64,000 bases of DNA, taken from the NCBI GenBank assembly GCA_902384455.1, contig CABMCB010000094.1:53305-117304 (forward strand). Reading direction: 5' to 3'. This document shows, in pieces, positions 1 through 17,916 of this stretch. Position numbers and translations under genes: made by a program. The DNA is from an uncultured archaeon (lineage in GTDB: Archaea; Altiarchaeota; Altiarchaeia; IMC4; SCGC-AAA252-I15). Position 1 is the stretch's first letter. Every line of letters begins with the position of its first letter. The notes under the pieces are model-generated. The model worked only from the letters and a program-made list of their open reading frames with translations, did not search any database and was not told where the DNA came from.

Positions 1-194
1 GGCGGCAGGTATAGTGTGGCAACGTCTACGTTTACGGGGATTTCGGATATGCTTTTGTAGCAGCGTATGCCTTCTATTTCGTTTTCTTTGGGGTTTACGG
101 GGTATACAGAATGGCCGGCCGCAATCCAGGCGCGTACTGCTTTGTTTCCGTATTTTTTCCTGTCTGCGCTTGCGCCTATGACCGCGACGTTCAT
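1..194 (-). CDS. CoA-binding protein (YccU-like), runs off the window start
   Basis: Manual translation from ATG 194: MNVAVIGASADRKKYGNKAVRAWIAAGHSVYPVNPKENEIEGIRCYKSISEIPVNVDVATLYLPP. VAVIGAS and YPVNP motifs; ATGA overlap with the glutaredoxin stop. Confidence 0.85.
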   Translation of the reverse strand, partial: MNVAVIGASADRKKYGNKAVRAWIAAGHSVYPVNPKENEIEGIRCYKSISEIPVNVDVATLYLP

Positions 195-433
195 TCGGCT
201 AGTTCTTCTTCTATTGCTTGCCGGTCGAATCCTACTATTATTTTCCCGTTTATGTCCAGTACGGGGACGCCCATTTGACCGCTTTTCTCGAACATTTCGG
301 TCGCCCCTTTTTCGTCGGACGAGACGTCCACTTCCTTGTAGGCGACTTTCTTCTGTTTCAGAAGATCACGTGCTTTATGACACCACGGGCACGAAGGCGT
401 CGCATAAATAGTTATTTGAATGTTTTTTGCCAT
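191..433 (-). CDS. Glutaredoxin-like protein (NrdH/YruB type)
   Basis: CPWC active site, GVP cis-Pro motif, IVGFD; GGTGGTGA SD-like sequence before the ATG. Confidence 0.9.
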   Translation of the reverse strand: MAKNIQITIYATPSCPWCHKARDLLKQKKVAYKEVDVSSDEKGATEMFEKSGQMGVPVLDINGKIIVGFDRQAIEEELAE

Positions 434-482
434 TTCACCACCCTTGCTTAGGGATTGGAACGAGGGGATTTAAATGGCGGGA

Positions 483-1001
483 CTATTTTTTCTTCTTTAT
501 CGTTTCCGTAAGCGCCAAAAGGCCTTTGAGTATTTCCGTCGGAGTCGGGGGGTTGCCGGGTATTTTAGCGTCCACGGGGAGTATTTTGTCGGCTCCGCCG
601 AGGACGGCGTATGAGTCTTTGAATATGCCTCCGTCGCATGCGTCGTCTCCGACTGCGATTACGAATTTGGGGTTTGGCATCGCATCGTAAGTTTTTTTGG
701 CGGCAATAGCCATGTTATGGGTGATGGGGCCTGTGACAACCAGGACGTCGGCGTGCCGCGGGGAGGCGACGAATGTTATGCCGAACCGTTCGACGTCGTA
801 GTAGGGTGTTGTAAGGTTTACGAGCTCTATTTCAGGGGAGTTGTCGCTTCCTGTGTCCAGTTCGCGGAGGGCTAGGCTTCTCCCGAAGATGGCGTCTACT
901 TCCTTTCGCAGCTTGATTCCGACGGCATCAAATTCTTCGTCTGTGAACGTGAAGTTTTTTGTCGACTTTGGTGTAACTATGTTTTTGAGTGGGTTCGCCA
1001 T
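483..1001 (-). CDS. hyfI: NuoB/HyfI-like small subunit of an Ehr complex, lacking the canonical Fe-S cysteines
   Basis: YDVERFGITFVASPRHADVLVVTGP family signature; GSDNSPEIE, GDDAC and PGNPP occupy the usual GSCxxC, GxC and PGCPP positions. Confidence 0.9.
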   Translation of the reverse strand: MANPLKNIVTPKSTKNFTFTDEEFDAVGIKLRKEVDAIFGRSLALRELDTGSDNSPEIELVNLTTPYYDVERFGITFVASPRHADVLVVTGPITHNMAIAAKKTYDAMPNPKFVIAVGDDACDGGIFKDSYAVLGGADKILPVDAKIPGNPPTPTEILKGLLALTETIKKKK

Positions 1002-1011
1002 TGTTTTTTCC

Positions 1012-2589
1012 TCACAGGTCCGTTCCCGCGTACGACAGGTTCAGGCTTTTATTGATTAAGGGGAAATCGGGCACGATGTTGCCCAAAACCGCATGCTCTA
1101 TGGCCTGCCAGTTGCAAAACGACGCCGTCCGCACTTTGTAGCGGTCGATGCGACCGTCTTTTATTCGCACCCAATGCAGGTTTTGGCCTCTTGGCGCTTC
1201 TATTAGGGATAGTGCGCTGCCGTCTGCGGGCTTGAGCGTAGTGTGGATGGCTTTGTTTTCGGGTATCCTGCAGATTAGTTTTTGTATTATGGCGGAGGAG
1301 TCATGTATTTCCGCCGCTTTGACTTCGAACCTAGACAGGACGTCGCCTTCTTCCCTCGTCCGCTTTTGCAGGTGCAGCTTGGGGTAGAGGCCGTAGGGGT
1401 GGTCTATTCGGGTGTCTACTTGTGCGCCTGATGCGCGGGCGGCTGGTCCGGTTATGTTAAGGGGTTCGATAAGCTCTTTTTTGATTACGCCCGTGCGCTC
1501 CAGGCGGTCTATGACTGATGTGGATGAGCGGATTGCGTTTACCGCTTCAGTGAATTTGCCGGAGAATTCCTCGAGGTAGTCTGAGAATTCGGTGAGCGAT
1601 TCGTCGGGGATGTTTTTTGTGAGGCCGCCTGTTGTGATTATGTCGCGTAGGAAGCGGGAGCCGGTTAGTTTTTGGTTTTGTTGTAGTGTTTGTTCGCGTA
1701 GGATGAAGAAGGGGCTTGCGCCTGCTGGGTATGCGACGTCTATTATCATTCCGGCCATGTCGCCAAGGTGGGAGTAGATGCGTTCTGTTTCCAGCAGTAT
1801 TGTTCGTATGTGCCATGCTCTTTCGGGTGCGTTTGTGTCGGTTATTTTTTCTATGGCGTTGCAGTAGGCGGTTGTGTTTGCGGCGGTTTCGTCGCCGCTT
1901 ATGGCTTGGGCTATTTTGACGGATTCTTGTGGTGTTTTTCCTTCGGCTAGTTTTTCTATGCCTCGGTGTTTGTAGAACATCCGGATTTCGAGGTTGAATA
2001 TTGTTTCGCCTATTACGCTGAATCTGAAGTGGCCTGGTTCTATTATGCCTGCGTGTACTGGGCCGACGGGTATTTGGTATACTCCTTCTCCGTGTACTTG
2101 TTTGAAGGGGTATTCGTCGGCTGCGTTGTTTTTTGTGTTTGTTGTTATTGGTCCGTTTTTGATTGTTTTTAGTAGGGGGTGGAAGTCGTTGGGGTATGTT
2201 TCGTGTAGGAATAGGCGGCGGATGTCGAATGCGTTTTTGAATTTGATGCCGAATCCGTCTGTGATTTCTCGTTCGTACCAGCAGGCGGCGGGGAATGTTT
2301 CGGCTATTGATTGGGCTGTTGTGTTTTTTAGTGGTATTTGGATTGTGAGGGTGTGTGGTTGGTGGCGTCGTTCGAAGACGTAGTGTAATGTGAATCCTTT
2401 TTTTGTGTCGGTTTCTTGTGTGCAGAATAGGGCTATTAGGATGAAGCCTTTTTGAGCGATGGCTGGAAGCGTCTCTTCCATCTCTTCTTCGCTGAGGGTT
2501 ATGGCGATTTCTTGGCTGCGTCCGTCGGTGGCCAATTCGGCTTTTTTGTTGCCGAATATGCCGTTCAGTTCTGCTCGTAGTTCGTCCAT
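1012..2589 (-). CDS. hyfG: NuoCD/HyfG-like large subunit of an energy-converting-hydrogenase-related (Ehr) complex; not a NiFe hydrogenase
   Basis: WYEREI, GPVHAGIIEPGHFRF, YKHRGIEK, EAPRG; both Ni-binding CxxC motifs absent (AISGDET; NKSLNLSYAGTDL). Confidence 0.9.
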   Translation of the reverse strand: MDELRAELNGIFGNKKAELATDGRSQEIAITLSEEEMEETLPAIAQKGFILIALFCTQETDTKKGFTLHYVFERRHQPHTLTIQIPLKNTTAQSIAETFPAACWYEREITDGFGIKFKNAFDIRRLFLHETYPNDFHPLLKTIKNGPITTNTKNNAADEYPFKQVHGEGVYQIPVGPVHAGIIEPGHFRFSVIGETIFNLEIRMFYKHRGIEKLAEGKTPQESVKIAQAISGDETAANTTAYCNAIEKITDTNAPERAWHIRTILLETERIYSHLGDMAGMIIDVAYPAGASPFFILREQTLQQNQKLTGSRFLRDIITTGGLTKNIPDESLTEFSDYLEEFSGKFTEAVNAIRSSTSVIDRLERTGVIKKELIEPLNITGPAARASGAQVDTRIDHPYGLYPKLHLQKRTREEGDVLSRFEVKAAEIHDSSAIIQKLICRIPENKAIHTTLKPADGSALSLIEAPRGQNLHWVRIKDGRIDRYKVRTASFCNWQAIEHAVLGNIVPDFPLINKSLNLSYAGTDL

Positions 2590-2593
2590 TTGT

Positions 2594-4051
2594 TTACACC
2601 CCCACGTCGGCGACGATGCGCGTTAGTAACGAAGTAAGCCATGCGGGGAAGTATATTCCCAGCACGAATATGAGTATGAGCAATGCTACAATAGGCATTT
2701 CCATGCCTATGTGCACCTGGTATTTCTTTGATGAAGCGACGTTTTTCTCCTCTATCTGAGAGAACATTTTGGTGAGCACAAGGGCGAATGATGACGCTGC
2801 CGCAACCAGCAGTATGAGTAGGATAAGCAGGAGTCCTGTGGATGCGTTCCCCGCCTGCAGCAGGATGGACAGCTTGGACATGAATATCATGAATGGCGGC
2901 ATTCCAGCTATTGCGGCGCTGCCAAGCATCATGCCCAATGATGCGAGGGGTTGCAGCTTAAGCGCATTCTCCATTTTTTCCACGCGGTTGCTTTGGTACT
3001 GCTGGTGGAGTATTCCCGCTGAGAAGAATAGCAGCGCCTTTGTGAGCGCGTGAGCTAGGACGTGGTAGAGGACCCAGAATAGGGCTATTGGAGTGCCTAT
3101 GCCTATGCCCACCAGCATTATGCCCATATGTTCTATGCTGGAGAAAGCGATGAGTTTCTTGAGGTTTCTCTGCGTTAGCATGCTGAATGCCGCAATGAAA
3201 ATGCTGAGCATGCCGAAAAATAGGAGTATCTTGGTGAAGGGGATTATTGCTGGCGTTTGCCTTACTATGGCCGTAAGCCGCAGTATCCCGTAGACGCCTA
3301 TGTTGAGTAGTACCGCAGAGAGCACGGCGCTTATCGCAGATGGGGCTCGTGAGTGGGCGTGCGGAAGCCAGGTGTGGAATGGGGCTATCCCGGATTTGGC
3401 GGCAAACCCTATGAAAACAAAGACGGCGGCGGCCGCAAGTAGTGTGGGAGGGAACTCTTTGGCGTGCGCTGTGATGTCGCTTAGGTTTAGTGTTCCTGCG
3501 GCAAGCGTGTGCTGCGTAAGCGCGAAAAAGAGTATGATGCCGATGAACGAGAAGAGCATTGCAATCGACGTTACAAATATGTATTTGAGGGAGGCGTCGA
3601 TGTTCTTGGTGGAGTTGAGGATGGCGATAAGCAGCGCGGAAACGAATGTAGTCAGCTCCGCGAAAATCCAAAAGAGCGCCAGATTGTTTGAGGAAAACAC
3701 AAGAACAGTCAGCAGCATCAGTATGTTGTATGCGATGTAGAACACCTGCATGTCCCTTTTGTCGAGCTCCTGATGCTGTATCATCCCCTTTATGTACCCC
3801 TTCAGGTACACGGCCGCAAGTAGGAACACCGTTCCCGCAATCAGTATTTCGTAAGCGGCTAGGTGGTCTATTAGGAGGTCTTTGTTTTCTAGGTAAGTGA
3901 GGGGTAGGTTTCCTTGGAAGGCGATAATCGCCGTTATCATCGCTCCCGCGGCGTTCATAACGGTCAGGATGTTCATTATCCGGTGCGACCTCGCAACGGA
4001 CACTACCGAGGAGACCAGCAGACTGAAAACCACGTAGTATATGAGTATCAT
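2594..4051 (-). CDS. hyfF: HyfF-like antiporter-type (NuoL/M/N family) membrane subunit
   Basis: Multi-TM; KSGIAPFHTWLPHAHSRAP, KKLIAFSSIEHMG, HALTKALLF. Confidence 0.9.
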   Translation of the reverse strand: MILIYYVVFSLLVSSVVSVARSHRIMNILTVMNAAGAMITAIIAFQGNLPLTYLENKDLLIDHLAAYEILIAGTVFLLAAVYLKGYIKGMIQHQELDKRDMQVFYIAYNILMLLTVLVFSSNNLALFWIFAELTTFVSALLIAILNSTKNIDASLKYIFVTSIAMLFSFIGIILFFALTQHTLAAGTLNLSDITAHAKEFPPTLLAAAAVFVFIGFAAKSGIAPFHTWLPHAHSRAPSAISAVLSAVLLNIGVYGILRLTAIVRQTPAIIPFTKILLFFGMLSIFIAAFSMLTQRNLKKLIAFSSIEHMGIMLVGIGIGTPIALFWVLYHVLAHALTKALLFFSAGILHQQYQSNRVEKMENALKLQPLASLGMMLGSAAIAGMPPFMIFMSKLSILLQAGNASTGLLLILLILLVAAASSFALVLTKMFSQIEEKNVASSKKYQVHIGMEMPIVALLILIFVLGIYFPAWLTSLLTRIVADVGV

Positions 4052-4052
4052 C

Positions 4053-4736
4053 TTAATCCTCCTCCTTAGACCACCCGTGGAAAGGGTGAAGCCGCATATG
4101 GAATTCCTCGATGCTCGAGTCTATGCCTATAGTGAGTATCAACGCAAGCAGCACAAGGATGAACAGGTCAATCATAATCAAAACCTCCACGATGAAAGGA
4201 AGCTCGGCCAAAAATAAACTGAAAAGTAGGACGCCGTTCTCCATCACCAAGTACCCGATGATTTTGGTGACAAGCTTCTTGCGGCTGACAGCCACCATCA
4301 TGCCCATTAACGTAAGCGAGACGCCGAATACTGCGCCAAGGTAAAATAGGTTGCTTAAGGCCAGTTCACGGATGATCTCGGAAAAAGCCGTATAGACCAG
4401 CAGGATGAGTATTATGGTGGCAACCAAAGAGCGCGCAGGAGTGAAATAATGAAACTCAAGGTCCCGTTTTATGCGCATCTCCCTCTGAATGCTGCGCATT
4501 ACGTACGGAATCAGTATGACCTTGCTTATGAGAGTTAGAGCGGCAAGGTACAGAAGAACCGAACTTCCATCCAACAGGTAAAGGAATACGGCCGCAAGCA
4601 CCAGAAGGAATGACTGTGCGGCATATGTGGAGACTAGCGAGAATAGGTCTCGTCTGGTGACGACTAATGCGCCTGTGATGAACGTGAGTGCTAGAAGTAC
4701 TTTAATCCATTCTGTTAGTAGCAGCGGGTCGATCAT
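4053..4736 (-). CDS. hyfE: HyfE-like membrane subunit
   Basis: Multi-TM; KVILIP and GYLVMENG motifs; lies between hyfC and hyfF homologues. Confidence 0.85.
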   Translation of the reverse strand: MIDPLLLTEWIKVLLALTFITGALVVTRRDLFSLVSTYAAQSFLLVLAAVFLYLLDGSSVLLYLAALTLISKVILIPYVMRSIQREMRIKRDLEFHYFTPARSLVATIILILLVYTAFSEIIRELALSNLFYLGAVFGVSLTLMGMMVAVSRKKLVTKIIGYLVMENGVLLFSLFLAELPFIVEVLIMIDLFILVLLALILTIGIDSSIEEFHMRLHPFHGWSKEED

Positions 4737-5674
4737 TTGAAGACCTCCAGGAATAGTGTGAGGACTGAAAAGAAGAATGCGGTCATGAACACGTTAGGCA
4801 GGTTGAATAGGCGCAATTTGGCTATTGACGACTCGACGACTCCTATGGCGAACGCAAGCACAGCGCCCTTAACAAGGAAGCTTAATGCGCCGACTGCTAT
4901 TCCCACGAGCGTCGCATCTGAGGATAGGCCCCATGGTACGAGGAGGTTTATGAATATACCCATTAGTAGGGTCTGTTTTACTGCGTGGGAAAGTTCCATG
5001 AGAGCAAGGTCGCTGCCGGATAGTTCCAGAATCATGGCTTCATGTATCATGGTGAGCTCAAGGTGTGTTTCGGGGTTGTCTACAGGTATCCGCGCAGTTT
5101 CCGTGATTAGGACGATAAACAGTGGAATAGAGATTAGGATAAATGCGGGGTCCATGAAGAAGCCGGTTCCTGCCGTCGCCCTAAACATCTCATGGAAGTT
5201 GGTGGTATGCAGTATGAACGCAAGCGCGGTGAAAACCATGACGGTAATCGGCTCTATTACCGCGGAGATGCTCATCTCCCGTGAGCTTCCCATCCCCCCG
5301 AATGTGCTTCCTGCGTCCAAACCCGCAAGAGCCATGAAAAACCGCGCGAGCGCCAGCAGGTACAGGAACAGTATGACGTTTCCTATGCCGTCGACAGGCG
5401 AAGGAACGAAAGCGAGGGGCACGAAAAGTGCGGCAACTACCATCGCTATTATGCTAACGTAAGGTGTTGCCCGCATAATCCACGACGCGTTTGAGGAGTA
5501 CACCCGCTCTTTCCTCATCAATTTCGCAATGCTATAGTACTGCTGAAGAAGCGGCGGACCCCTGCGCCTTTGGGCGTACGCCTTGACCTTCTTTATGAGC
5601 CCCATGAACAGCGGAGAAACCAATAAAGCCACCGCCACGTTCACTATACAGTATAGTACGAAGGAGCCGGTCAC
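4733..5674 (-). CDS. hyfC: HyfC/NuoH-like membrane subunit
   Basis: QRRRGPPLLQ, FGGMGSSREM, ETARIPVDNPETHLELTMIHEAMILE; probable GTG start 5674 overlapping the hyfB stop (ORF track starts at 5683). Confidence 0.9.
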   Translation of the reverse strand: MTGSFVLYCIVNVAVALLVSPLFMGLIKKVKAYAQRRRGPPLLQQYYSIAKLMRKERVYSSNASWIMRATPYVSIIAMVVAALFVPLAFVPSPVDGIGNVILFLYLLALARFFMALAGLDAGSTFGGMGSSREMSISAVIEPITVMVFTALAFILHTTNFHEMFRATAGTGFFMDPAFILISIPLFIVLITETARIPVDNPETHLELTMIHEAMILELSGSDLALMELSHAVKQTLLMGIFINLLVPWGLSSDATLVGIAVGALSFLVKGAVLAFAIGVVESSIAKLRLFNLPNVFMTAFFFSVLTLFLEVFK

Positions 5675-7617
5675 AGGTACCACCCCAAAAGAACCAGTAA
5701 CGCCACGACCGCTATGAAGCCGTAGTTAATGTACGAATCGAGGTTGCCGTTCTGCAGCGCCGAAACCGAACGCGAAATGCCGCCCGCCATCTTAGCAACA
5801 GGCATGTAAAGGTACTCCTCAAAAAACTTCATCAGGTGAATCTCTGCATATCCCCCCTTGAAAATAACCTGCTTATTATCGAAGAACGTCCTATCACTGA
5901 CTTTCTTAGTCTGGTAAACAGGCTTGAATATGGTGACAATAGGCTCGGAAAACCCTGACGCCGTATACTCCATCTTACTGTTCTGCGAAAGCAGCCCGCA
6001 CCCCCACGTCTCGCTAACACGACTTCTGCGAACGGACAACGTAAAGACCGCAATATACACTGCCGCATAAACCAAAAGCAAAAGCAAACCAACCAAAAGA
6101 AGATTCGGGATAAGAAGCGGATAACCTAACCACGACAAAAGCGGCGCGGAAAAGACACCGAGAAAAACGCACAAAAAGGCAAGAAAACCAGGACCAACCA
6201 ACATCAGAAACGGCACCTCCTTCGACTTCTGCGCCTCCTCAGACCTCGGAACCGCAAGGAACATGACACCGAACGCCTTAACGAAACACGCGGCAGCAAG
6301 CGCGCTGGTTAATGCGAAAACGGAGAGGCACATCATCAGCGACAACTGAAGCATCGGGTGGTTCTGCAGCGCGTAAGACTGAAGAAGCACCTGGAATATC
6401 ATCAATTCGCTTACAAATCCATTGAAAGGAGGCAACGCCGATATGGACACCGCACCCACAAGGAAGAATAACGCAGTATACGGCATACGCTTAATCAAGC
6501 CTCCCATTTCCTCTATGTTCTGCGTCTTTACTGCGCTTACGACCGAACCCGCAGTGAGGAACAGGAGGCTCTTGAACAGCGCGTGATTGAGGGTGTGGAA
6601 TAGGGCGCCTATGAGGCTGAGGAACGCCAGGTCCGCAAGCCCGTAATGCAGGAAGATAGGATACAAACCAAATCCTATAAGAATTATGCCGACGTTCTCT
6701 ATGCTGTGGTACGCAAGAAGCCGCTTGATATCATGCTCCTTGAGGGCGTATATCACGCCCAAAATGGCGGACGTAGTACCTACGACTAAGATGATGATGC
6801 CCCACCAGGGGTTGGGCGGCAGGACATATAGGACGAACCGCATCAGACCGTATATCGCCACCTTTATCATTACGCCGGACATTAAGGCGGATATGTTTGA
6901 GGGGCTGGCGGGGTGCGCGTAAGGCAACCACTTGTGGAAAGGTATGACTCCCGCTTTAATCCCGAATCCCACAAGCAACGCCAAGAATACGGCGGCCGCA
7001 GACCCAGTCGCGATTTCAACGGCCGTTATGCTAAGTGATCCGCTTGCGCGGTATAGCAGGGAGAATGCGATTATTAGGAAGACTGTGCTTAACTGCGTCA
7101 TTGCGAAGTAGAATATTCCTGCTTTTCTTGTTTCCGGCTTCTCGTACTCGAACATCACAAGGAAGAAGGATGAAAGCGACATGAGCTCCCAGAAGAATAG
7201 GAATGAAAAGGTGTTTTCTGACGCCACTACGAGGACCATGGAGAGTATGAAAACGTTCATTAGGGAGGCCAGCACGTTTTTGCGGCGCACGTGCCTGCCG
7301 TGTTCCACATACTGGATGGAGTATACCGCCACCGCCAGCGAGACTACGGATATTACGAGGATGAAGAATGAGGCAAGCCGGTCTACTGCGAATGACAACG
7401 CCAGCGACGGCGCAAGGGAATAAGCGGCGAAATAAGTCTCCTGATTCGCATATATTGTTGCCGAAGAGAAGGATAGAAACAGAAGGGACGATACTACAGT
7501 AAGCAGAAAAGAAATCCGCCTAACAGACCTGCCCAGACGCAAAGAAAAAAGAAGCGGCAACAGAGAGCCGACGAGGGAGAACGCCACACCACCGCAGAAC
7601 AATGAAGACGTAAGCAT
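5671..7617 (-). CDS. hyfB: HyfB-like antiporter-type membrane subunit
   Basis: WELMS, KAGVIPFHKWLPYAHP, KRLLAYHSIENVG, LPPFNGFVSE, TWGCG, MEYTASGF. Confidence 0.92.
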   Translation of the reverse strand: MLTSSLFCGGVAFSLVGSLLPLLFSLRLGRSVRRISFLLTVVSSLLFLSFSSATIYANQETYFAAYSLAPSLALSFAVDRLASFFILVISVVSLAVAVYSIQYVEHGRHVRRKNVLASLMNVFILSMVLVVASENTFSFLFFWELMSLSSFFLVMFEYEKPETRKAGIFYFAMTQLSTVFLIIAFSLLYRASGSLSITAVEIATGSAAAVFLALLVGFGIKAGVIPFHKWLPYAHPASPSNISALMSGVMIKVAIYGLMRFVLYVLPPNPWWGIIILVVGTTSAILGVIYALKEHDIKRLLAYHSIENVGIILIGFGLYPIFLHYGLADLAFLSLIGALFHTLNHALFKSLLFLTAGSVVSAVKTQNIEEMGGLIKRMPYTALFFLVGAVSISALPPFNGFVSELMIFQVLLQSYALQNHPMLQLSLMMCLSVFALTSALAAACFVKAFGVMFLAVPRSEEAQKSKEVPFLMLVGPGFLAFLCVFLGVFSAPLLSWLGYPLLIPNLLLVGLLLLLVYAAVYIAVFTLSVRRSRVSETWGCGLLSQNSKMEYTASGFSEPIVTIFKPVYQTKKVSDRTFFDNKQVIFKGGYAEIHLMKFFEEYLYMPVAKMAGGISRSVSALQNGNLDSYINYGFIAVVALLVLLGWYL

Positions 7618-7708
7618 CTTAGTCGCCTTTGGATTTCATAACGCAATTTCTAGCGTTCTTATTCATCCCCCCTCTTTAAGAACATTCATTCAATGACCAA
7701 AAAAAGCG

Positions 7709-8920
7709 TCATCCGCCAAACATCAGAATGCCCGGCTTGAATATTAGTATGAGGCCGAGAAGCAGCATTAGTGTGCCGCCGATTAGTTTTCCTATTTTTC
7801 CTTCTTTCGCATCTAGTTTGCGGCTGCGCAACGTATATACCGCTATGCTAAAGACGAGAAGGTCATCCAGCATGTAGAAGAAGATGTATAGGCTCAAGTA
7901 AGCGTAGTACATTGGAGCGGAGAGGTTGTTTAAAGTCAATACTCTAGTGTAAATGGCGGGAAACCCGGCCGTGCACGCAAGCTCCACTAGGTTGACGGCG
8001 AACGCCAAAACTATTGTGCCGGCGATTGTCGCAGGCAACGCTCCCTCGTGGACTATACTGCGCATCCGCTTGAATATGCCTGGTTTGACGCTTTCAGGTA
8101 TCGTAAGCGACGGACCCTTCTTGAACCAAAACACGTCCTTAAGGTTTATGAGGCCTGCTGCCACCGCGAACGCTCCTATTGCAACGCGGGTCGGGGTTGC
8201 GTAGCCCACAAACAGGAATAAATTAAGCCACGCGGCCATAAACAGGAAGTAGCTTATGCCGGAAGCCAAAATGAATATCCCGCCTACGAGGAACATCTTT
8301 CTTCGGCTTCTTGTGTACACTAAAAGCGCAAGAAGGAAAGTCAACACCCACATAGCGCAGGGGTTAAATCCGTCCAAAAGGCCGACGGCCATTGTGAAGG
8401 CGGGCAAGCTGACTGTGAGAGGGTCTACTTCGCCAAGGCCAGGAACCAGCATGATGTTTGAAACGTTTTCCGGCTGAACCAACTCCAGTTTCATGGAGGA
8501 ATTAGTAAGTTTGAGGTATGGGCTGAGGCAGCCGTATTTTATGCAGAATTTTACTTTGTTTTCAATTCTCTGCCCTGAAACAAACGTGTTGCCGTAGCCG
8601 GCAAAGTATGTGTCGCCTATGAAGTTTGCCGGCACTCCGCCGGGTTTCTCGCCGTATGCGTCCGTGAAATTCAGAAGCAGAGGCACAAATTCAGGATTCG
8701 TCTCTAAGTCGTAATAATCAAACGTGACCTGAGGATAACGGACTAAAAGTTCAGACATGAACTCTTTCTCCGCCTGACAGTGAGGGCAACTTGTGCGCCC
8801 GAAAACAACCAACGTGACGTTGTACTCCGGCTGCCCCACATCATCCGCTGAAACAGGCAGAAGAAGGAGAAAGACGGAGAATAGTATGATTGCCGCCTTG
8901 AAACTCAAATATGACGCCAT
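7709..8920 (-). CDS. Thioredoxin/glutaredoxin domain fused to a CcdA/DsbD-like membrane domain
   Basis: Signal peptide, CPHC, GVP; membrane region with DGFNPCAMW and ELACTAG cysteines. Confidence 0.85.
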   Translation of the reverse strand: MASYLSFKAAIILFSVFLLLLPVSADDVGQPEYNVTLVVFGRTSCPHCQAEKEFMSELLVRYPQVTFDYYDLETNPEFVPLLLNFTDAYGEKPGGVPANFIGDTYFAGYGNTFVSGQRIENKVKFCIKYGCLSPYLKLTNSSMKLELVQPENVSNIMLVPGLGEVDPLTVSLPAFTMAVGLLDGFNPCAMWVLTFLLALLVYTRSRRKMFLVGGIFILASGISYFLFMAAWLNLFLFVGYATPTRVAIGAFAVAAGLINLKDVFWFKKGPSLTIPESVKPGIFKRMRSIVHEGALPATIAGTIVLAFAVNLVELACTAGFPAIYTRVLTLNNLSAPMYYAYLSLYIFFYMLDDLLVFSIAVYTLRSRKLDAKEGKIGKLIGGTLMLLLGLILIFKPGILMFGG

Positions 8921-8930
8921 ATCAGCGGTC

Positions 8931-9893
8931 CTAAACTTCGTAACCTAATTCCCGCGTAAGCTCCTCATACCTATTGCGGATAGTAATCTCGGTCACACCC
9001 GACAGCTTCTCAGCAATCTCCTTCTGAGTGTAACGCTCACGAGTAAGCTTCCCAGCCAAATAAATAGCAGCAGCCGCAACACCAGTAGGACCGCGGCCCG
9101 ACGTAATACCCTTCTCGCGGGCCCGCTGAATTATTTCCATAGCCTTCGCCTCAGTCTCCCCGCTTATTCCCAACTCGCTAGCGAACTTAGGAACATAATC
9201 CATGGGAGTCGCAACAGGCATCTTAAGGCCGAGTTTGCGGCAGCAGAAGCGGTAACTTTTTCCGATGTCCTTCTTGCTTTTGCCGGTCGCCTCGGAAAGC
9301 TCGTCCAGCGTCTTAGGCTGCCCGTGCTTCCGGGTTACGAAATATACGATTGCGGCAACAACACTCTCTATGCTGCGCCCCCGCGTCAGCCCCTGATTGA
9401 CGGCTTTGCGGTAAATCATGGCGCACTCCTCCTTTATGTTGTTGTTTATGGAAAGGAAACTGCAGACTCGGTCCAACTCCGGAAGCGCAATAGAAAGGTT
9501 CCTGTGGACGCTGTCGCTCATGCGGCTGCGCCGCTGCCACTTACGCAGACGATACAACTGAGCCTTCCTCTCCGGCTGAATGTTACCCCCGCGAATGTCG
9601 CGATCATAACGGTCGATTTCAGTGGTAAGACCTTTGTTAAGCTTAGCGAACTTGACTGGGCCGCCGGTGCGGCTTCTTTTGGCGGTCTGCTCCTGATCGA
9701 ACGCCCGCCACTCCGGACCGCTGTCGATAAGATTTTCCTCAATAACGGTGCCGCATGCTTTGCAGACTATTTCAGCGTGCTTGCGGTCCGTGAACAAGTT
9801 TCCGCTGCCGCATTCAGGGCAGACCTTTATTTCTTCTCCGGGGGTAGACTCAGGTTTTTCCCCCTTCACCATTTGCATTGATTTAACTGTCAT
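8931..9893 (-). CDS. tfb: Transcription initiation factor IIB (TFB)
   Basis: Zn ribbon CPECG...CKACG, GPEWRAF B-reader, RLRKWQ, two cyclin repeats (GRSIE, GRGPTGVAAAAIY, TEITIRNRY). Probable ATG 9893; ORF track start 9965. Confidence 0.96.
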   Translation of the reverse strand: MTVKSMQMVKGEKPESTPGEEIKVCPECGSGNLFTDRKHAEIVCKACGTVIEENLIDSGPEWRAFDQEQTAKRSRTGGPVKFAKLNKGLTTEIDRYDRDIRGGNIQPERKAQLYRLRKWQRRSRMSDSVHRNLSIALPELDRVCSFLSINNNIKEECAMIYRKAVNQGLTRGRSIESVVAAIVYFVTRKHGQPKTLDELSEATGKSKKDIGKSYRFCCRKLGLKMPVATPMDYVPKFASELGISGETEAKAMEIIQRAREKGITSGRGPTGVAAAAIYLAGKLTRERYTQKEIAEKLSGVTEITIRNRYEELTRELGYEV

Positions 9894-10056
9894 CTTAGAA
9901 CCGTGTAAAAGGCAGAATGAAGAGTATATTGCTTCTTTACCGCTTAAAAAAGAGGCAGTATTCAAAAAGTTACCTGATTTCGGCCGGATTCTTATTCTTT
10001 AGCATTTTTTAAGGGGGGAACATAAAGAGTGGATGACAGTTTTTGTAGGCACTCAC

Positions 10057-10839
10057 ATGAAAAAAATCTATTTAGGATTAATGGTTTTCACCTTGGCCCT
10101 GTTTGCTTTCAACGCATCCGGAGCAGGACAGAACGGGCAAGACAACCGCCCTGACGCTCAAGTCGTCCCATACAAAGGGAACGAGATTAAGAACTACAGC
10201 CTGTTTGACTGCGGCAACACCACAGACAAGAAGGAGGAATTAAAGTGCAAAACATCTGCACGGATAAGAGAGGATGAAGGAAACAAAAGCAGATTTACCG
10301 GAATCAACTGCTCAAACATAACTGGAGTAGGAGACCGAATAAGATGCCGCATCAAAACGCAAGTAAACGAAAAAACAAACAAAAGCGAATGCGCCGAGCA
10401 AACAGGAGAAAACCAGACTCAATGCGAACAAAAATACCAGAAAACCAAAGACTGCTGGAAGAAAAACCTAACTGACGACCGCATATCATGCATAAAAGAA
10501 AAACTAAACGCCACAGACTTCCAAGAGCGCAAACAAGAATGCATGAACAAAACAGAACAAGAACGCGGACAATGCATAGCAGACCTAAAACGCGCGGCCT
10601 ACGACGCAGTGCTACTTAGGTTTGAAAACATCGAAGACCGCATACAAACCCTCCAAAACAAAAGCCTGCTCACAACGGCAGAAGCCGATGAATACACCGC
10701 CCAAATAGAAGAACAAAAAATCGCGTTCAACCAATCCAAAAACCTGGACGGACTATTAGAAGCCATCCACACCGTCAGAGACATATGGCAAGAAATCATA
10801 CAAACAGCCAAAAACCACAAAAAGGAGGCCGAACAATGA
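10057..10839 (+). CDS. Secreted Cys-rich helical hypothetical protein
   Basis: MKKIYLG signal peptide (probable start 10057; ORF from 10033); regularly spaced Cys. Confidence 0.7.
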   Translation: MKKIYLGLMVFTLALFAFNASGAGQNGQDNRPDAQVVPYKGNEIKNYSLFDCGNTTDKKEELKCKTSARIREDEGNKSRFTGINCSNITGVGDRIRCRIKTQVNEKTNKSECAEQTGENQTQCEQKYQKTKDCWKKNLTDDRISCIKEKLNATDFQERKQECMNKTEQERGQCIADLKRAAYDAVLLRFENIEDRIQTLQNKSLLTTAEADEYTAQIEEQKIAFNQSKNLDGLLEAIHTVRDIWQEIIQTAKNHKKEAEQ

Positions 10840-11105
10840 AACCCGCGTTTATACTGCTTATGATGGCATTCGCAGTCGCTTTGTCAGGCTGCTTGGGAAC
10901 AGACGAGACATCCACGACCACTGCTCCATCAACAGTAGAGCAGACGTATGTCACAACCACTTTAGCGGCGCAGTCTGCCACAACAACTACAGTAATTCAA
11001 CCACCGATAGAGGTTAGTACGACCGCCACAACAATAGACCTCGGCGTTGACTTAAACGACGGCTTAGACGGCGCAATAAAGGACGTCCAGGACGTAAACT
11101 CTTAG
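10836..11105 (+). CDS. Small Thr-rich lipoprotein
   Basis: GGAGG SD then ATG 10836 (ATGA overlap); lipobox LSGC; Thr-rich linker. Confidence 0.75.
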   Translation: MKPAFILLMMAFAVALSGCLGTDETSTTTAPSTVEQTYVTTTLAAQSATTTTVIQPPIEVSTTATTIDLGVDLNDGLDGAIKDVQDVNS

Positions 11106-11167
11106 TGAGTATTCTGACCGCGTTTGCAGCAGCCTAATCTAAGTAAGCTTTTATCTACAGCAGGGAA

Positions 11168-11953
11168 ATGAGTATTGTGGAAGCCCTTAAGCTGATTAGT
11201 TTAGGCCTTTTATGCGGGTTCCTGAGTGCCACATTGGGCATTGGAGGGGGGGTTATTCTGGTGCCTGCGCTTGTTTTCCTTTTGGGTTACCACATGAAAA
11301 AAGCAGTCTCTACGTCTCTTTCCACTATTATTCCCACGACTCTTGTCGCACTTCTTACCCACTATTTGATACAAGGAGGACATTTCCAATTTCTCCTTGC
11401 CGCATTAATCACATTAGGCGCCCTTTTTGGCGCAAAGTTCGGAGCACAACTGGTCCACCAGATAAGCACACACCGCCTAACAAGATTATTCTCGCTGCTT
11501 TTGATTGTTACCGGACTCAAGCTCGCAGGAGCACTAAGCGTATCAGCAGACACCGGCACAGTAAGCACTACGCCGCCGCTGCTTGTCTCATTGGGCCTGG
11601 CAACAGGCACATTATCCGCGCTATTTGGGGTAGGTGGCGGCGTAATAGTAGTACCTGCGTTAAACATGCTCTTCGGATTGCCCCTTAAGGACGCCATGAC
11701 TATTTCCCTCCTTGTTATACTTCCTACGGCGTGCGCGGGCGTTTTCTTCCACAGAAAATTCAATAACGTGGATTCTGGGGCTCTTAAAACGCTTGTTCCG
11801 GCAGCCGCTTTAGGGGCAGTCATAGGCACTTTTGTTTCACCGCACATTCCCGCAGACGCGCTAAAACAGATTCTCGGATTCTTCCTCGTCTTGACCGCAA
11901 CCTTGATGATAGTACAGCACAAAATCAAAAGTAAAACCCCGACAGTTGCGTAG
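11168..11953 (+). CDS. Sulfite exporter TauE/SafE family protein
   Basis: Two repeats of G(I/V)GGGVI(L/V)VPAL, about 8 TM helices. Confidence 0.9.
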   Translation: MSIVEALKLISLGLLCGFLSATLGIGGGVILVPALVFLLGYHMKKAVSTSLSTIIPTTLVALLTHYLIQGGHFQFLLAALITLGALFGAKFGAQLVHQISTHRLTRLFSLLLIVTGLKLAGALSVSADTGTVSTTPPLLVSLGLATGTLSALFGVGGGVIVVPALNMLFGLPLKDAMTISLLVILPTACAGVFFHRKFNNVDSGALKTLVPAAALGAVIGTFVSPHIPADALKQILGFFLVLTATLMIVQHKIKSKTPTVA

Positions 11954-11991
11954 CGACTAGCATTCTTATCCTTGTACAACGGGGTATTTTT

Positions 11992-12678
11992 ATGGCGAAT
12001 CCGACGACATTGCCAGCGGTACAGCAGATGAAGGGGGACGCGCTCGGAATCCGCGGGCAACAGGCCATGCAACAGCTTGATGAGGCTTTAGGGCAGTTGG
12101 ATCCAGGCAAACTTAGAGAATACGGGATTCCAACAGGATATCTAATCGGCGCAGAAAGGGAGCTGGCAAGGAGGCCTCTCGCGCAGTTGGACAGGCTTAA
12201 GGATGCGCGGCGCGGTTTGGAGGAACGGTGCGACCGCCTTTCTTTACAGTTTATTAAACCGACCGGCGAGTACAGTTTTGCAAATTACGGATTTGACACG
12301 GCGAATTATACGGGGGGAGAAAACATTGAAGACAGAGTCGTCCAGGTGGATGGAAAGCTTCAAACCATTTTCGTGGGAAGAACCGGCACCAACTCCCCAT
12401 ACAACTACAGAGACATCGGTAAGGCAGTTTACGACATAGCCGAACTTAGGATACAACAGGACAGGGAGAAAAAAGGCTGGCTAAGCAAACCCGTAAGCCC
12501 CGCAGAATCTGAACTAGGCGCAAGAGAAGCGCACATTATCGTCGAACACAAAGTCCTAGACCAAATTGAGGCAGACCCGGCACTACTTACTCAAGTTGGA
12601 AGAGCCATAAAAACATCCAGAGACACCGGAAAACCCTTTAGACAAATCTGGGCGGCACTTCAAGAAAAACAGGCGTAA
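11992..12678 (+). CDS. Hypothetical protein
   Basis: 228-aa ORF of normal composition filling the gap; no motif recognised. Confidence 0.65.
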   Translation: MANPTTLPAVQQMKGDALGIRGQQAMQQLDEALGQLDPGKLREYGIPTGYLIGAERELARRPLAQLDRLKDARRGLEERCDRLSLQFIKPTGEYSFANYGFDTANYTGGENIEDRVVQVDGKLQTIFVGRTGTNSPYNYRDIGKAVYDIAELRIQQDREKKGWLSKPVSPAESELGAREAHIIVEHKVLDQIEADPALLTQVGRAIKTSRDTGKPFRQIWAALQEKQA

Positions 12679-12690
12679 AAACTTATTTTT

Positions 12691-12732
12691 CGGTGGACGC
12701 CCACTCTACAGATTGAAACGGTGGACGCCCAC
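12691..12732. repeat. 14-bp direct repeat CGGTGGACGCCCAC x2
   Basis: Exact copies at 12691-12704 and 12719-12732. Confidence 0.85.
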
Positions 12733-12749
12733 CTAACCCCCTTCTGAGC

Positions 12750-12950
12750 AAAAAGCAGACATCTACGCCTTACCCCACCTTCTTCCAGTCGGCCGGAAGC
12801 AGATTGTATGGGTCATAGGCGTATTTCTTCTCTTTATGCCCGTCAAAGGGATTCCCCTTTATACCCGAAGGTATACAGTCATAGACCACTTTCCCGTTCA
12901 CCTCCTACACGGGACAATGCCCGGATGGCGCTATTTCCCTGTCGCCTGGG
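12750..12950 (-). ncRNA. Structured ncRNA, ARRPOF-like (tentative)
   Basis: Intergenic with several hairpins (TATACC-TTCG-GGTATA, AAAGGG-GAAT-CCCTTT, CTTCCGG-CCGA-CTGGAAG); ends in TGTCTGCTTTTT; the family resemblance is from memory only. Confidence 0.55.
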
Positions 12951-13025
12951 AGGCGGAGTTATGTAATACTCCGCCCCCGCATACCCGCGAATTTTCTTAT
13001 TGGCGACTTTCATCTTACCATCGAT

Positions 13026-13105
13026 TCTATATTACTCCGGATGGCATATATACTTTCCCGACATAGAATATATTTATATATATAGACTCTTTATTTGTAT
13101 ATAGA
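13026..13105 (+). promoter_or_regulatory. AT-rich promoter/operator region of phoU with repeated TATATA/ATATAG elements
   Basis: TCTATAT, ATATATA, TTTATATATATAG and TATATAG clustered upstream of a GAGG SD and the ATG. Confidence 0.4.
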
Positions 13106-13117
13106 AGAGGTTTGATT

Positions 13118-17890: not shown

Positions 17891-17916
17891 TTTTTATCCT
17901 ATCGTTTTTGTTCACC

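Follow-up and report, generated by a model that had tools for sequence, protein, structure and literature searches.

A six-gene operon on the minus strand of the 64,000-nucleotide stretch of archaeal DNA analyzed here (the window) was found to encode a complex with neither a Ni-Fe site in its peripheral arm nor the one iron-sulfur cluster retained there by ordinary Ehr complexes, and the loss of both defines a conserved subfamily. By sequence, the operon is assigned to the Ehr-type complexes, relatives of formate hydrogenlyase-2 (Hyf), membrane-bound hydrogenase, and complex I. The name Ehr and its subunit letters reportedly go back to Coppi in 2005 and Marreiros et al. in 2013. We estimate at about one in two the probability that the operon represents a functional Ehr subfamily without redox cofactors that would move ions without electron transfer, a function deduced from absences.

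The operon occupied window positions 483–7617 and consisted, in order of reading, of minus-strand ORFs at 7617–5671 (ehrA), 5683–4733 (ehrB), 4736–4053 (ehrC), 4051–2594 (ehrD), 2589–1012 (ehrL), and 1001–483 (ehrS). All six frames were intact, with no internal stop, and neighbors were separated or overlapped by at most 13 nt, in agreement with an earlier note on this DNA that had described an intact, tightly coupled operon. The products comprised HyfB-, NuoH/HyfC-, HyfE-, and HyfF-like membrane subunits, together with a NuoCD/HycE-like large subunit and a NuoB/HycG-like small subunit. The antiporter-type, HyfB/NuoL-like EhrA (648 aa) matched Pfam families PF00361 (Proton_antipo_M, E = 3e-62) and PF00662 (N domain), scored 893 bits against NCBIfam PRK08667, above the cut-off of that model, and had HycC (7z0s_C, E = 2e-72) as its top solved relative. 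The NuoH/HyfC-like EhrB (316 aa) matched PF00146 (NADHdh, E = 1.6e-38), being the sole match to that family in the whole genome, and its top solved relative was HycD (7z0s_D, E = 4.9e-42). No match was obtained for the small, HyfE-like membrane subunit EhrC (227 aa) in the Pfam search; it matched NCBIfam PRK11492 (hydrogenase 4 membrane subunit) with E = 2.4e-16, below the cut-off of that model, and its position within the operon was kept in all loci of the clade described below. The second antiporter-type subunit, the HyfF/NuoN-like EhrD (485 aa), matched PF00361 (E = 2.7e-54) and NCBIfam PRK08676 (573.6 bits, above its cut-off). The NuoC-NuoD/HycE-like EhrL (525 aa) contained PF00329 (Complex1_30kDa) and PF00346 (Complex1_49kDa), with HycE (7z0s_E, E = 3e-64) as its top solved relative, and the NuoB/HycG-like EhrS (172 aa) matched PF01058 (Oxidored_q6, E = 2.7e-26) and HycG (E = 5.3e-30). 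A run of seven T residues on the minus strand (7699–7705), directly 3′ of the stop codon of the upstream gene, is likely an archaeal terminator, in which case a separate transcript would begin with ehrA.

Next, the [4Fe-4S] ligand positions of EhrS were read against a Cys-containing homologue, P0123, which carries GSCNGCELE, GDCARDCG, and PGCPP. The four ligand columns were occupied by D53, P56, D120, and N150, and alignment with NDUFS7 likewise paired GSC with GDD and PGCPP with PGNPP. On the minus strand, D53 (845–843, GAC) and P56 (836–834, CCT) stand where the cluster motif has its CxxC pair (834–845). D120 (644–642, GAC), within the segment 636–647 that also encodes D119 and C122 (638–636, TGC), replaces the third Cys, and N150 (552–554, AAC) replaces the fourth. 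C122 is the sole Cys in EhrS. Thus, the alignments and codon coordinates bear out the earlier claims that all four N2-type cysteines are replaced, that each codon is at least two substitutions from TGY, and that a single non-canonical Cys is left. D53, D119, D120, and C122 were each at least 90% conserved in an alignment of 47 sequences (A1). The fold motifs previously noted for this NuoB/HyfI-like subunit, ASPRHADVLVVTGP, were also found in EhrS. An AF2 model (pLDDT 88.8) had NDUFS7 (E about 1e-15), HycG, and MbhJ as top Foldseek matches and aligned with MbhJ (6cfw_J) at a TMt of 0.87 and an rmsd of 2.3 Å; the fold is thus kept despite the loss of the cluster.

The large subunit was analyzed in the same manner. 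Against E. coli HycE, RVCGIC aligned with AISGDE and DPCYSC with NLSYAG, and neither the L1 (RxCGxCxxxH) nor the L2 (DPCxxCxxH/R) Ni-Fe motif was present in EhrL. The Ni positions were instead occupied by S231 (1899–1897), E234 (1890–1888), S519 (1035–1033), and G522 (1026–1024), as expected from the earlier observation that both Ni CxxC motifs are missing. This S-E-S-G set occurred in every clade locus with readable positions, and both the Glu at the second Ni position (E234) and the Asn in place of the following His (N238) were clade-specific. PF00374 gave 47.1 bits over two stretches of the whole EhrL protein, and its matches in the genome scan were short stretches of about 24 bits each, below its cut-off. 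EhrL shares the motifs S-G-D and N-K-S-x-N-L-S-Y-x-G-x-D with cluster-keeping Ehr complexes; therefore, whatever activity Ehr large subunits have in common may persist in EhrL. Three Cys residues were conserved in the clade, namely C122 of EhrS and C243 and C492 of EhrL, and the conservation of C122 and C492 was specific to it. The operon was also said to lack a NuoI/HyfH ferredoxin, and this held in motif scans, as CxxCxxCxxxC was not found in the six frames of window positions 1–14000, nor CxxCxxCxxxCP across the whole 64 kb.

Every hallmark charged residue of an ion-translocating membrane arm was retained. E144, K221, H228, K252, and K349 of EhrA, E132, K219, H226, and K338 of EhrD, and R198, D202, E209, E215, and E220 of EhrB were invariant in all 10 clade loci. 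In the antiporter-like EhrA and EhrD, they correspond to the TM5 Glu, the Lys and His of TM7, and the TM12 Lys, with the TM8 Lys in addition in EhrA; the five EhrB residues are charged positions in the NuoH-like loop. They were likewise kept in two comparison sets of 15 loci each, one of other Cys-less and one of Cys-keeping Ehr loci, the exceptions being one X and one Q at two TM7 His positions, both in other Cys-less loci.

Homologues were then collected from the databases. GSDN..E.E was present in 116 of the 120 nearest homologues (68–100% identity), with the CxxC form in none, and PG[ND]PP in 113 (PGNPP in 109 and PGDPP in 4). The carriers belonged to Altiarchaeota, Woese- and Nanoarchaeota, Thermoplasmatota, methanogens, including a cultured Methanosarcina with a complete genome, and Dehalococcoidia. 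D-x-D-N was found in all eight top genome loci and in all Altiarchaeota orthologue loci read. The ehrS clade was supported by an SH-aLRT of 97 (IQ-TREE, trait columns removed), and two small-subunit trees, on which the Ehr placement rests, nested the window's EhrS among Cys-keeping Ehr small subunits, apart from true hydrogenase small subunits. All six genes were under strong purifying selection (dN/dS 0.04–0.14); the values for ehrS in the two least saturated pairs, 0.039 and 0.045, were the lowest, and the other five genes ranged from 0.068 to 0.140. The earlier note had raised the question of whether motif-sharing homologues form a clade under purifying selection; they do so, and the opposite picture, with Cys-keeping close relatives and relaxed selection, was not observed. 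The Cys-less operon therefore belongs to a large multi-phylum clade and is not a peculiarity of this genome stretch, which the earlier note had missed.

Among 80 Ehr-type loci, the four small-subunit Cys residues were kept in 57 and not in 23, although the ranking of these loci by likeness to a Cys-less query means that the Cys-less ones are over-represented. The large subunit could be read in 79 of these loci, and no Cys occurred there at any readable Ni position. These counts agree with the earlier statement that Ehr complexes lack Ni ligands and normally keep the small-subunit Cys residues. The gene order A-B-C-D-L-S recurred throughout the complete clade loci and in the majority of the 80. 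Further Cys-less Ehr lineages, likewise missed before, were found in CPR bacteria and elsewhere, and the residues replacing the ligands varied among them. Two to three Asp/Glu occupied the four former ligand positions in 63 of 72 Cys-less rows, and Gly at position 120 was accompanied by an acid at position 56 in 13 of 15 Cys-less rows, the rows being related in both cases so that the counts are not independent. No mention of small-subunit cluster loss was found in the accessible literature, a coverage that does not include the two founding Ehr papers.

As far as the accessible parts of the papers go, Ehr complexes are defined by loss of the large-subunit CxxC motifs (PMC6349859, PMC7304191, PMC10284858, PMC4378227). 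The window's operon resembles them in its six subunit types and their order, in a large subunit without Ni-Fe cysteines that carries the two common motifs, and in having no NuoI/HycF-type ferredoxin subunit, but differs in the loss of all four small-subunit ligands. E. coli Hyc (PDB 7Z0S) and hydrogenase-4/Hyf (FHL-2) have the same antiporter-like and NuoH-like architecture, and HycE, HycC, HycD, and HycG are the top solved relatives of four subunits. Unlike these, the present complex has no Ni-Fe site, proximal cluster, HycF/HycB-type ferredoxin subunits, or formate dehydrogenase, and the TM7 Lys present here is Leu in HycC. More generally, it differs from group 4 [NiFe]-hydrogenases (Hyc/Hyf, Ech, and Mbh) in having no L1/L2 motifs, proximal cluster, or 2×[4Fe-4S] ferredoxin-like subunit. 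Pyrococcus furiosus MBH (PDB 6CFW) and MBS/MBX are also related, MbhJ being the closest structural match of the EhrS model and MbhL, MbhH, and MbhM clear sequence relatives of window subunits. However, MBH carries a Ni-Fe site and three [4Fe-4S] clusters, whereas the window's complex has ligands for none of these and fewer membrane subunits. With the Q-module of complex I (NuoB, NuoD, and NuoH), it shares the NuoB fold, NuoC-NuoD homology, and, in EhrB, the NuoH loop R-x-P-x-D...E...E...E-x-S-G, but it has no N2 ligands, NuoI, NuoEFG, or Pfam-recognized NuoA/J/K genes, and the NCBIfam NuoB, NuoD, and NuoH equivalog scores of the window's proteins were far below the cut-offs. Mrp antiporters (PDB 6Z16, 7QRU, and 7D3U) are not known to use any redox cofactor. 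Their MrpA and MrpD subunits are homologues of EhrA and EhrD (EhrA versus MrpA, E = 5.7e-43; versus MrpD, E = 1.4e-34) and have the same Glu/Lys/His set (TM5 Glu and TM7/TM12 Lys). In contrast, Mrp is a seven-subunit MrpA-G assembly without NuoH-, NuoD-, or NuoB-like subunits, and no MrpB/E/F/G-type genes were found in the window's operon by Pfam and NCBIfam.

Because the cofactor sites are all lost and yet the complex is strongly conserved, it probably moves ions without electron transfer. As the complex has no cofactor that could accept electrons or hand them over, redox chemistry most likely plays no part in its own activity. Like its Mrp antiporter relatives, it would then be a secondary cation/proton translocator, in which the large and small subunits, capping the NuoH-like subunit, would have a role in coupling, gating, or sensing. 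Where the cluster used to sit, conserved carboxylates and amides appear to line the cavity (D53, D120, and N150, next to D119 and C122), which would make it a site of the proton or hard-cation type, not of the Fe-S cluster type. More speculatively, and with a rather low probability in our estimation, the N2/proximal-cluster cavity may have been rebuilt as a buried D53/D120/N150 site, in which binding and release of H+ or a hard cation (Na+ or Mg2+) replaces the redox change of the cluster as the coupling trigger. On this view, a Glu56/Gly120 pairing at the former cluster site of sister lineages would be compensating.

Some observations speak against ion movement as the function. The constraint on EhrS and EhrL exceeds what a passive cap would seem to need; these peripheral subunits are the best conserved (for ehrS, the lowest dN/dS and 59–70% identity between archaeal and bacterial phyla by tblastn), which is indicative of genuine chemistry or of a specifically bound ligand. 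Moreover, Mrp antiporters have no such peripheral arm, and the same genome already contains four Na+/H+ exchanger genes, so that another antiporter is not obviously needed. Alternatively, the complex could be an ion-gradient-driven, non-redox enzyme or ligand-handling machine, in which ion flow drives a conformational cycle in the large/small-subunit pocket, like a complex I in reverse, and which would catalyze or release a non-redox product. We regard this as unlikely overall, but it would account for the strong constraint on the peripheral subunits and for clade-specific invariant polar residues at both former cofactor sites (E234 and N238 in EhrL; D53, D120, and N150 in EhrS). One speculative example would be the interconversion of CO2 and bicarbonate, which has been proposed for the Cup and DAB systems. 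In this respect, at one of two related Methanomicrobiales loci (L037), ehrA has a β-carbonic anhydrase gene about 1.2 kb upstream, and the other (L033) has a homologous ORF. However, that gene is on the opposite strand with an acetyltransferase gene between, and it was identified by Pfam in one lineage only, the L033 ORF being a BLAST match. The carriers also include CPR and DPANN organisms, which are not expected to be autotrophs. Furthermore, no substrate can be named, and the differing substitutions among Cys-less lineages argue against one fixed catalytic center.

We consider it doubtful that the complex is still a redox enzyme. Its cofactor would then have to be unconventional, either a metal held by Asp/Asn/Cys or the conserved Cys residues acting as a thiol/disulfide pair, or else the centers would be supplied by a partner whose gene lies elsewhere. 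Other Ehr complexes keep the cluster and are assumed to be redox-coupled in the literature, as far as the accessible part of PMC6349859 goes. In the window, a glutaredoxin gene (191–433, minus strand; PF00462, E = 5.3e-19) lies 49 nt downstream of ehrS, and the operon is flanked on the other side by a gene (7709–8920, minus strand) for a 403-aa membrane protein whose N-terminal domain weakly resembles thioredoxin/glutaredoxin (PF00462, E = 8.9e-4, below the cut-off). L033 and L037 also have a glutaredoxin gene upstream of ehrA, at a distance of about 2.7 kb, accompanied in L037 by a ferredoxin-thioredoxin-reductase-like gene in the same region (about 2.2–2.7 kb). The three clade-conserved Cys residues and these thiol-redox genes near the operon in two lineages make thiol-based chemistry possible, and in one separate Cys-less lineage the small subunit is extended at its N terminus by a ferredoxin-like segment. 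However, the window's clade has no such extension, zero to one Cys is left at or near the cluster site, and the position of C122 is Ile in most other Cys-less lineages. To our knowledge, non-Cys ligation of [4Fe-4S] clusters involves replacement of one ligand, not all four. In addition, comparison of 12 loci, drawn from at least five lineages, revealed no conserved redox gene beside the module. The glutaredoxin gene adjoined ehrS in this genome only, being not adjacent in four Altiarchaeota relatives and seven other clade loci; the membrane protein had no homologue beside the operon in relatives; and neither the L037 genes nor a cupredoxin-like ORF downstream at L034 recurred across lineages. 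Only the six operon genes were common to eight loci and to the four Altiarchaeota relatives, and the flanks held regulators, transporters, and a transposase, with no known respiratory or hydrogenase module genes. These results indicated that the operon is a self-contained six-gene module that travels across archaeal and bacterial phyla without a conserved redox partner beside it.

Total loss of cofactor ligands is also the expected look of a decaying remnant of a hydrogenase or Ehr operon, and the operon was patchily distributed within the Altiarchaeota phylum (10 of 61 genomes; 7 of 31 genera). Nevertheless, decay is very improbable and is contradicted by the selection data, as well as by the intact frames, the identity of ehrS between phyla, the at least 90% conservation of replacing residues, and the invariant membrane-arm residues. 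A sequencing or assembly artefact or an alternative genetic code can be set aside almost entirely, since each codon is at least two substitutions from TGY, the same residues recur in 116 of the 120 nearest homologues, including independent assemblies and the complete Methanosarcina genome, and other genes of this genome, such as a group-3-type [NiFe] hydrogenase, have normal Cys motifs.

All three options of the earlier note, namely a redox-independent transporter, a gradient-driven enzyme, and a metal bound through Asp/Asn, are compatible with all these findings. If the less probable reading of a rebuilt, ion-binding cluster cavity is true, these operons would encode natural redox-free versions of complex I, in which ion pumping is driven or gated by ion binding alone. 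Their carriers would then include Altiarchaeota, DPANN, and CPR, whose energy metabolism is minimal, as well as methanogens.

Six open reading frames were found on the minus strand at window positions 483–7617, separated by gaps of at most 10 nt or overlapping by at most 13 nt, and no internal stop was present in any of the six genes. Subunit identities were assigned with Pfam and NCBIfam. The operon encoded a HyfB/NuoL-like subunit (ehrA, 648 aa; PRK08667 at 893 bits, above cut-off), a NuoH/HyfC-like subunit (ehrB, 316 aa; Pfam/NCBIfam), a HyfE-like subunit (ehrC, 227 aa; NCBIfam only, E=2.4e-16), a HyfF/NuoN-like subunit (ehrD, 485 aa; PRK08676 at 574 bits, above cut-off), a large subunit that is a NuoC-NuoD/HycE-like fusion (ehrL, 525 aa; Pfam/NCBIfam), and a NuoB/HycG-like small subunit (ehrS, 172 aa; Pfam/NCBIfam).

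We analyzed the cofactor ligands of the two peripheral subunits by alignment. With phmmer, segments GSCANGG and PGCPPT of mammalian NDUFS7 lay over GDDACDGG and PGNPPT of ehrS. A homologue that is 50% identical to ehrS (P0123) kept its cysteines (GSCNGCELE, GDCARDCG and PGCPP), and its alignment placed the four [4Fe-4S] ligand columns of ehrS at D53, P56, D120 and N150, whose codons were GAC, CCT, GAC and AAC; C122 was the sole Cys of the protein. Alignment of ehrL with Escherichia coli HycE showed that the Ni-Fe motif segments read A-I-S-G-D-E and N-L-S-Y-A-G, indicating that the Ni positions are S231, E234, S519 and G522. The ferredoxin motif CxxCxxCxxxC was absent from all frames of window 1–14000, and CxxCxxCxxxCP was absent across the whole 64-kb window. 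The earlier note had claimed that all small-subunit cluster cysteines were replaced through these very codons with one Cys left over, that the large subunit lacked both Ni CxxC motifs, and that the operon had no NuoI/HyfH ferredoxin; all of this was borne out. E234 was also considered as the counterpart of Tyr87, which binds quinone in complex I, but this was dropped, as the alignment placed that Tyr opposite G232.

The genes of the operon and their order, its large-subunit motifs and its place in the tree make it an Ehr complex. It lacked a cluster-bearing small subunit, which is a usual, although perhaps not a defining, feature of Ehr. Judged on what defines each of them, it is neither a [NiFe] hydrogenase nor complex I nor an Mrp antiporter. 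Coppi 2005 and Marreiros et al. 2013 are reportedly the founding Ehr papers and may already describe small-subunit loss. In the available portions of the Ehr literature found, a set that excludes those founding papers and supplements, small-subunit cluster loss was not mentioned. The portions available described Ehr complexes either by loss of the large-subunit CxxC motifs alone or without motif detail (PMC6349859, PMC7304191, PMC4758237, PMC10284858, PMC10432482, PMC4378227, 10.1101/328856 and 10.1101/2021.08.23.457424), and their function was given as unknown. Nothing relevant to this loss was present in the available parts of PMC5520028, PMC9258230, PMC8091004 and PMC12411855.

Next, homologues of ehrS were collected. 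A word-indexed search gave 6055 relatives at E≤1e-5, and the best 120 of these 6055 (68–100% identity) were examined. GSDN..E.E was present in 116 of the 120, GSEN in one, and three were unmatched by the pattern; none of the 120 carried the CxxC form. PGNPP was found in 109 of these best homologues and PGDPP in 4. Their named sources included Altiarchaeota, Nanoarchaeota, Woesearchaeota, Thermoplasmatota, Crenarchaeota and Dehalococcoidales, and the database labels of homologues read "NADH-quinone oxidoreductase subunit B family", "Ni,Fe-hydrogenase III small subunit", "formate hydrogenlyase" and "mbhJ". In a 47-sequence ehrS alignment, D53, D119, D120, C122 and N150 were each at least 90% conserved. 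An exhaustive search of representatives returned 6737 proteins at E≤0.001, with the best representative 57% identical, and a metagenome atlas search with ehrS (ESM Atlas) returned the NuoB family only.

A genome scan with one genome per species was then employed, and the best 80 loci among the matches listed were compared. No Cys occurred at any readable Ni position in the 79 loci with a readable large subunit, so all of the loci are Ehr-type. All four small-subunit cysteines were kept in 57 of the 80, including those of rhizobia, methylotrophs, Verrucomicrobiota, Omnitrophota and Nitrospirota, and were not all kept in 23; because the ranking was by similarity to a Cys-less query, this split does not give population frequencies. 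Among the 23, the eight best loci (59–70% tblastn identity) all showed the order A-B-C-D-L-S, D-x-D-N at the small-subunit ligand columns and S-E-S-G at the large-subunit Ni positions. They came from a Moduliflexus MAG, two Methanosarcina, Methanosarcinales, Methanomicrobiales, Methanoregulaceae, Dehalococcoidales and Dehalogenimonas; one of the two Methanosarcina is a cultured isolate with a complete genome (L036). The other 15 showed the patterns TCDD, TEGx, SEGD, DCDD or DADD, had the order S-A-B-C-D-L in every case, and belonged to CPR phyla, Bdellovibrionales, a Syntrophus MAG, Thermoleophilia, a Gammaproteobacteria MAG and four unclassified MAGs. At positions 3350–9988 of the Methanomicrobiales MAG locus L033, ehrA, ehrD and ehrL were broken into several ORFs; this looks like frameshift errors in the assembly, not decay, given the mostly intact sister locus L037.

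Within the phylum of the window, an orthologue at E≤1e-50 was present in 10 of 61 genomes and 7 of 31 genera. On one Altiarchaeales scaffold (L113), ehrS alone was visible, but three 100-N gaps interrupt the sequence at this place and make the locus uninformative. In an Altiarchaeota relative (G024; L115:2671-3747), the end of ehrS is followed or preceded at a distance of some 300 nt by a gene for an IS110-family transposase, which hints that the six-gene module is mobile. This patchy distribution, the 59–70% identity to bacterial and methanogen copies and the adjacent transposase together suggest that the module spread horizontally.

Phylogenetic analysis was conducted with the small subunit, a protein of 172 columns, and the Cys status of each row was read from the alignment columns. 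A FastTree analysis of 258 small subunits was rooted on a true hydrogenase small subunit, with fragments shorter than 130–150 aa left out. It placed the window within a 60-row group (support 86) that had no row with three or more of the cysteines, and the sister of this group consisted of Cys-keeping Ehr rows (support 96). IQ-TREE (LG+C20 PMSF, short search) was run on 101 rows after removal of the five trait columns, with seven partial or NuoB-type loci dropped and Cys-keeping rows randomly thinned to 40. Here, the D-x-D-N clade comprised 22 rows (SH-aLRT 97), and its sister was a set of four Cys-keeping rows from Omnitrophota and Saganbacteria (SH-aLRT 90). CPR-type Cys-less lineages stood beside that pair inside a 51-row group (93). 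Another Cys-less group of 12 rows was placed apart, with an N-terminal ferredoxin-like extension in at least five of its rows. The two trees differed in their bearing on the number of cluster losses, FastTree giving a single Cys-less group and IQ-TREE interposing Cys-keeping rows; in an AU test, the 47 Cys-less rows as one clade, a group defined after seeing the tree, were not rejected (p 0.47). From its placement in both trees, the D-x-D-N clade is solid and descended from Cys-keeping Ehr ancestors. A separate NuoB-like small-subunit lineage (P0159, P0205, P0206, P0222 and P0257) also lacked the proximal-cluster cysteines (with patterns such as DIDD, DVDS, DDDS and ECED) and carried an N-terminal extension with ferredoxin-like Cys motifs; it would be a different route to a reshaped electron path.

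The AlphaFold2 model of ehrS, built from a 47-row alignment, had a mean pLDDT of 88.8 and a pTM of 0.81, and its best Foldseek matches were NDUFS7, HycG and MbhJ (E ~1e-15; for MbhJ, TMt 0.87 and rmsd 2.3 Å). In the membrane arm, the TM5 Glu, TM7 Lys and His, TM8 Lys and TM12 Lys of ehrA, the TM5 Glu, TM7 Lys and His and TM12 Lys of ehrD, and five charged residues in the NuoH-type loop of ehrB were identical in 10 of 10 clade loci; the assignment of these motifs to helices is one that we take from complex I and Mrp. The same residues were identical in all 15 Cys-keeping Ehr loci and in the 15 other Cys-less loci, except for one X and one Q at the two TM7 His positions in the latter. In ehrL, S231-G-D233 and N-K-S-x-N-L-S-Y-x-G-x-D were common to Cys-keeping Ehr, and E234, N238, K424, T488-A489 and C492 were clade-specific. 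Furthermore, two to three of the four former ligand positions were Asp or Glu in 63 of 72 Cys-less rows, and where position 120 was Gly, position 56 was acidic in 13 of 15 rows, all of these rows being related. The former cluster positions are not randomly filled, and both patterns suggest that a buried charge, or a site for a hard cation, is conserved there.

The host genome (2.41 Mb, archaeal, 92% complete) showed matches to PF00361 and PF00146 in the operon's own genes only. It carried an A/V-type ATPase, a membrane pyrophosphatase and four Na+/H+ exchanger genes, and no Rnf/Nqr-type gene was found in this 92% complete assembly. The only true hydrogenase signal found in it was a group-3-type, cytoplasmic-type [NiFe] hydrogenase pair that lies on the same contig some 40 kb upstream of the window (L002; G000:C94:12304-15702), with a 435-aa large subunit having intact RICGTCS and DPCMSCASH and a 163-aa Oxidored_q6-type small subunit.

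A conserved seventh partner gene was sought by all-vs-all BLAST of the flanks of 8 loci, tblastn in 4 Altiarchaeota relatives and Pfam analysis of 28 flanking ORFs, and nothing common across lineages appeared. The flanks varied by lineage, with two-component regulators in Dehalogenimonas and Moduliflexus, TrmB-/FilR1-type regulators in Methanosarcinales, and transporters. In the window, a glutaredoxin gene lies 49 nt 3′ of ehrS, and a seven-T run follows the gene upstream of the operon. The product of that upstream gene (7709–8920, minus strand) is 403 aa long and combines a signal-like N-terminus with a thioredoxin-fold domain containing CPHC and some six predicted membrane helices; Pfam gave a weak glutaredoxin match only, and by its predicted features the protein resembles DsbD/CcdA-type thiol-disulfide transporters. 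Both adjoining genes were rejected as parts of the module, being particular to this genome. Just upstream of the membrane protein, a TFIIB-like transcription factor gene (8931–9965, minus strand), recognized from its translation alone, fits an archaeal origin for the contig. In L037 (334–3264), ehrA is preceded by genes for a glutaredoxin, for a fusion of a ferredoxin-thioredoxin-reductase catalytic subunit with a rubredoxin-like domain and for a GNAT acetyltransferase, by a small uncharacterized ORF and, on the opposite strand, by a beta-carbonic anhydrase gene. In L033 (307–3232), Pfam confirmed the glutaredoxin and the acetyltransferase only, and the other ORFs matched L037 by BLAST. In the window, too, a glutaredoxin gene lies beside the operon. 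Elsewhere in the window, at 14121–22020, 29328–37022 and 53637–59804, four very large ORFs (1001, 1367, 2564 and 2055 aa) gave near-zero Pfam signal, with C-terminal NHL repeats in the 2055-aa ORF and otherwise only a lamin-tail domain and one weak Ig-like match; they may be surface or appendage proteins.

Selection was estimated as Nei-Gojobori dN/dS over six orthologous pairs. Between the two Methanosarcina loci, dN/dS was 0.039 for ehrS and 0.068–0.115 for the other five genes; similarly, two congeneric Altiarchaeota relatives gave 0.045 and 0.080–0.140, the ratios being approximate because dS was 0.76–1.6 in these pairs. More distant pairs were saturated. Of the six proteins, the one without its former cofactor is under the strongest constraint. 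Relaxed selection, which the earlier note had named together with Cys-keeping close relatives as evidence against its reading, was contradicted by this range of 0.039–0.140 with its minimum at ehrS, and the tree support and low dN/dS answer in the affirmative its question whether homologues with GSDN and PGNPP motifs form a clade under purifying selection.

The operon encodes a complete, selected six-subunit complex-I-type assembly, in which the ion-translocation apparatus is intact and ligands for any known redox centre are absent. Because no centre could accept electrons, the complex would be unable to use redox energy on its own. Mrp antiporters exchange cations for protons, and the simplest working mode would be such an exchange, with the peripheral cap closing and controlling the cavity on the NuoH-like subunit. 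We propose this Mrp-like exchange under control of the cap with a probability of about 0.5. Alternatively, an ion gradient might drive a non-redox enzyme, which we consider unlikely, or the complex might be a cryptic redox or thiol-based enzyme, which seems quite improbable. Both are kept live by the Ehr-wide motifs of ehrL and by how strongly ehrS is constrained, which argue for some specific activity persisting in the peripheral cap. Operon decay, in contrast, is contradicted by the intact reading frames and by ehrS being the most constrained gene, against relaxed selection. That the missing cysteines are an artefact is likewise contradicted.

Given the hydrogenase and complex I names that databases attach to these proteins, metabolic reconstructions may credit Altiarchaeota, Woese- and Nanoarchaeota, Thermoplasmatota, Dehalococcoidia and some methanogens with a coupling site, H2-evolving or respiratory, for which the sequence offers no basis. 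Should the complex be redox-inert, the searches found no redox-driven ion pump of the families covered (complex I superfamily and Rnf/Nqr) in the host genome, and of the primary pumps looked for it would have just the ATPase and the membrane pyrophosphatase. For complex I, it has long been an open question how the distant antiporter subunits are driven by chemistry at the NuoB/NuoD/NuoH junction. A naturally cofactor-free, strongly selected member of the superfamily, one carrier of which is the cultured Methanosarcina, offers a system for studying the coupling machinery apart from electron transfer.
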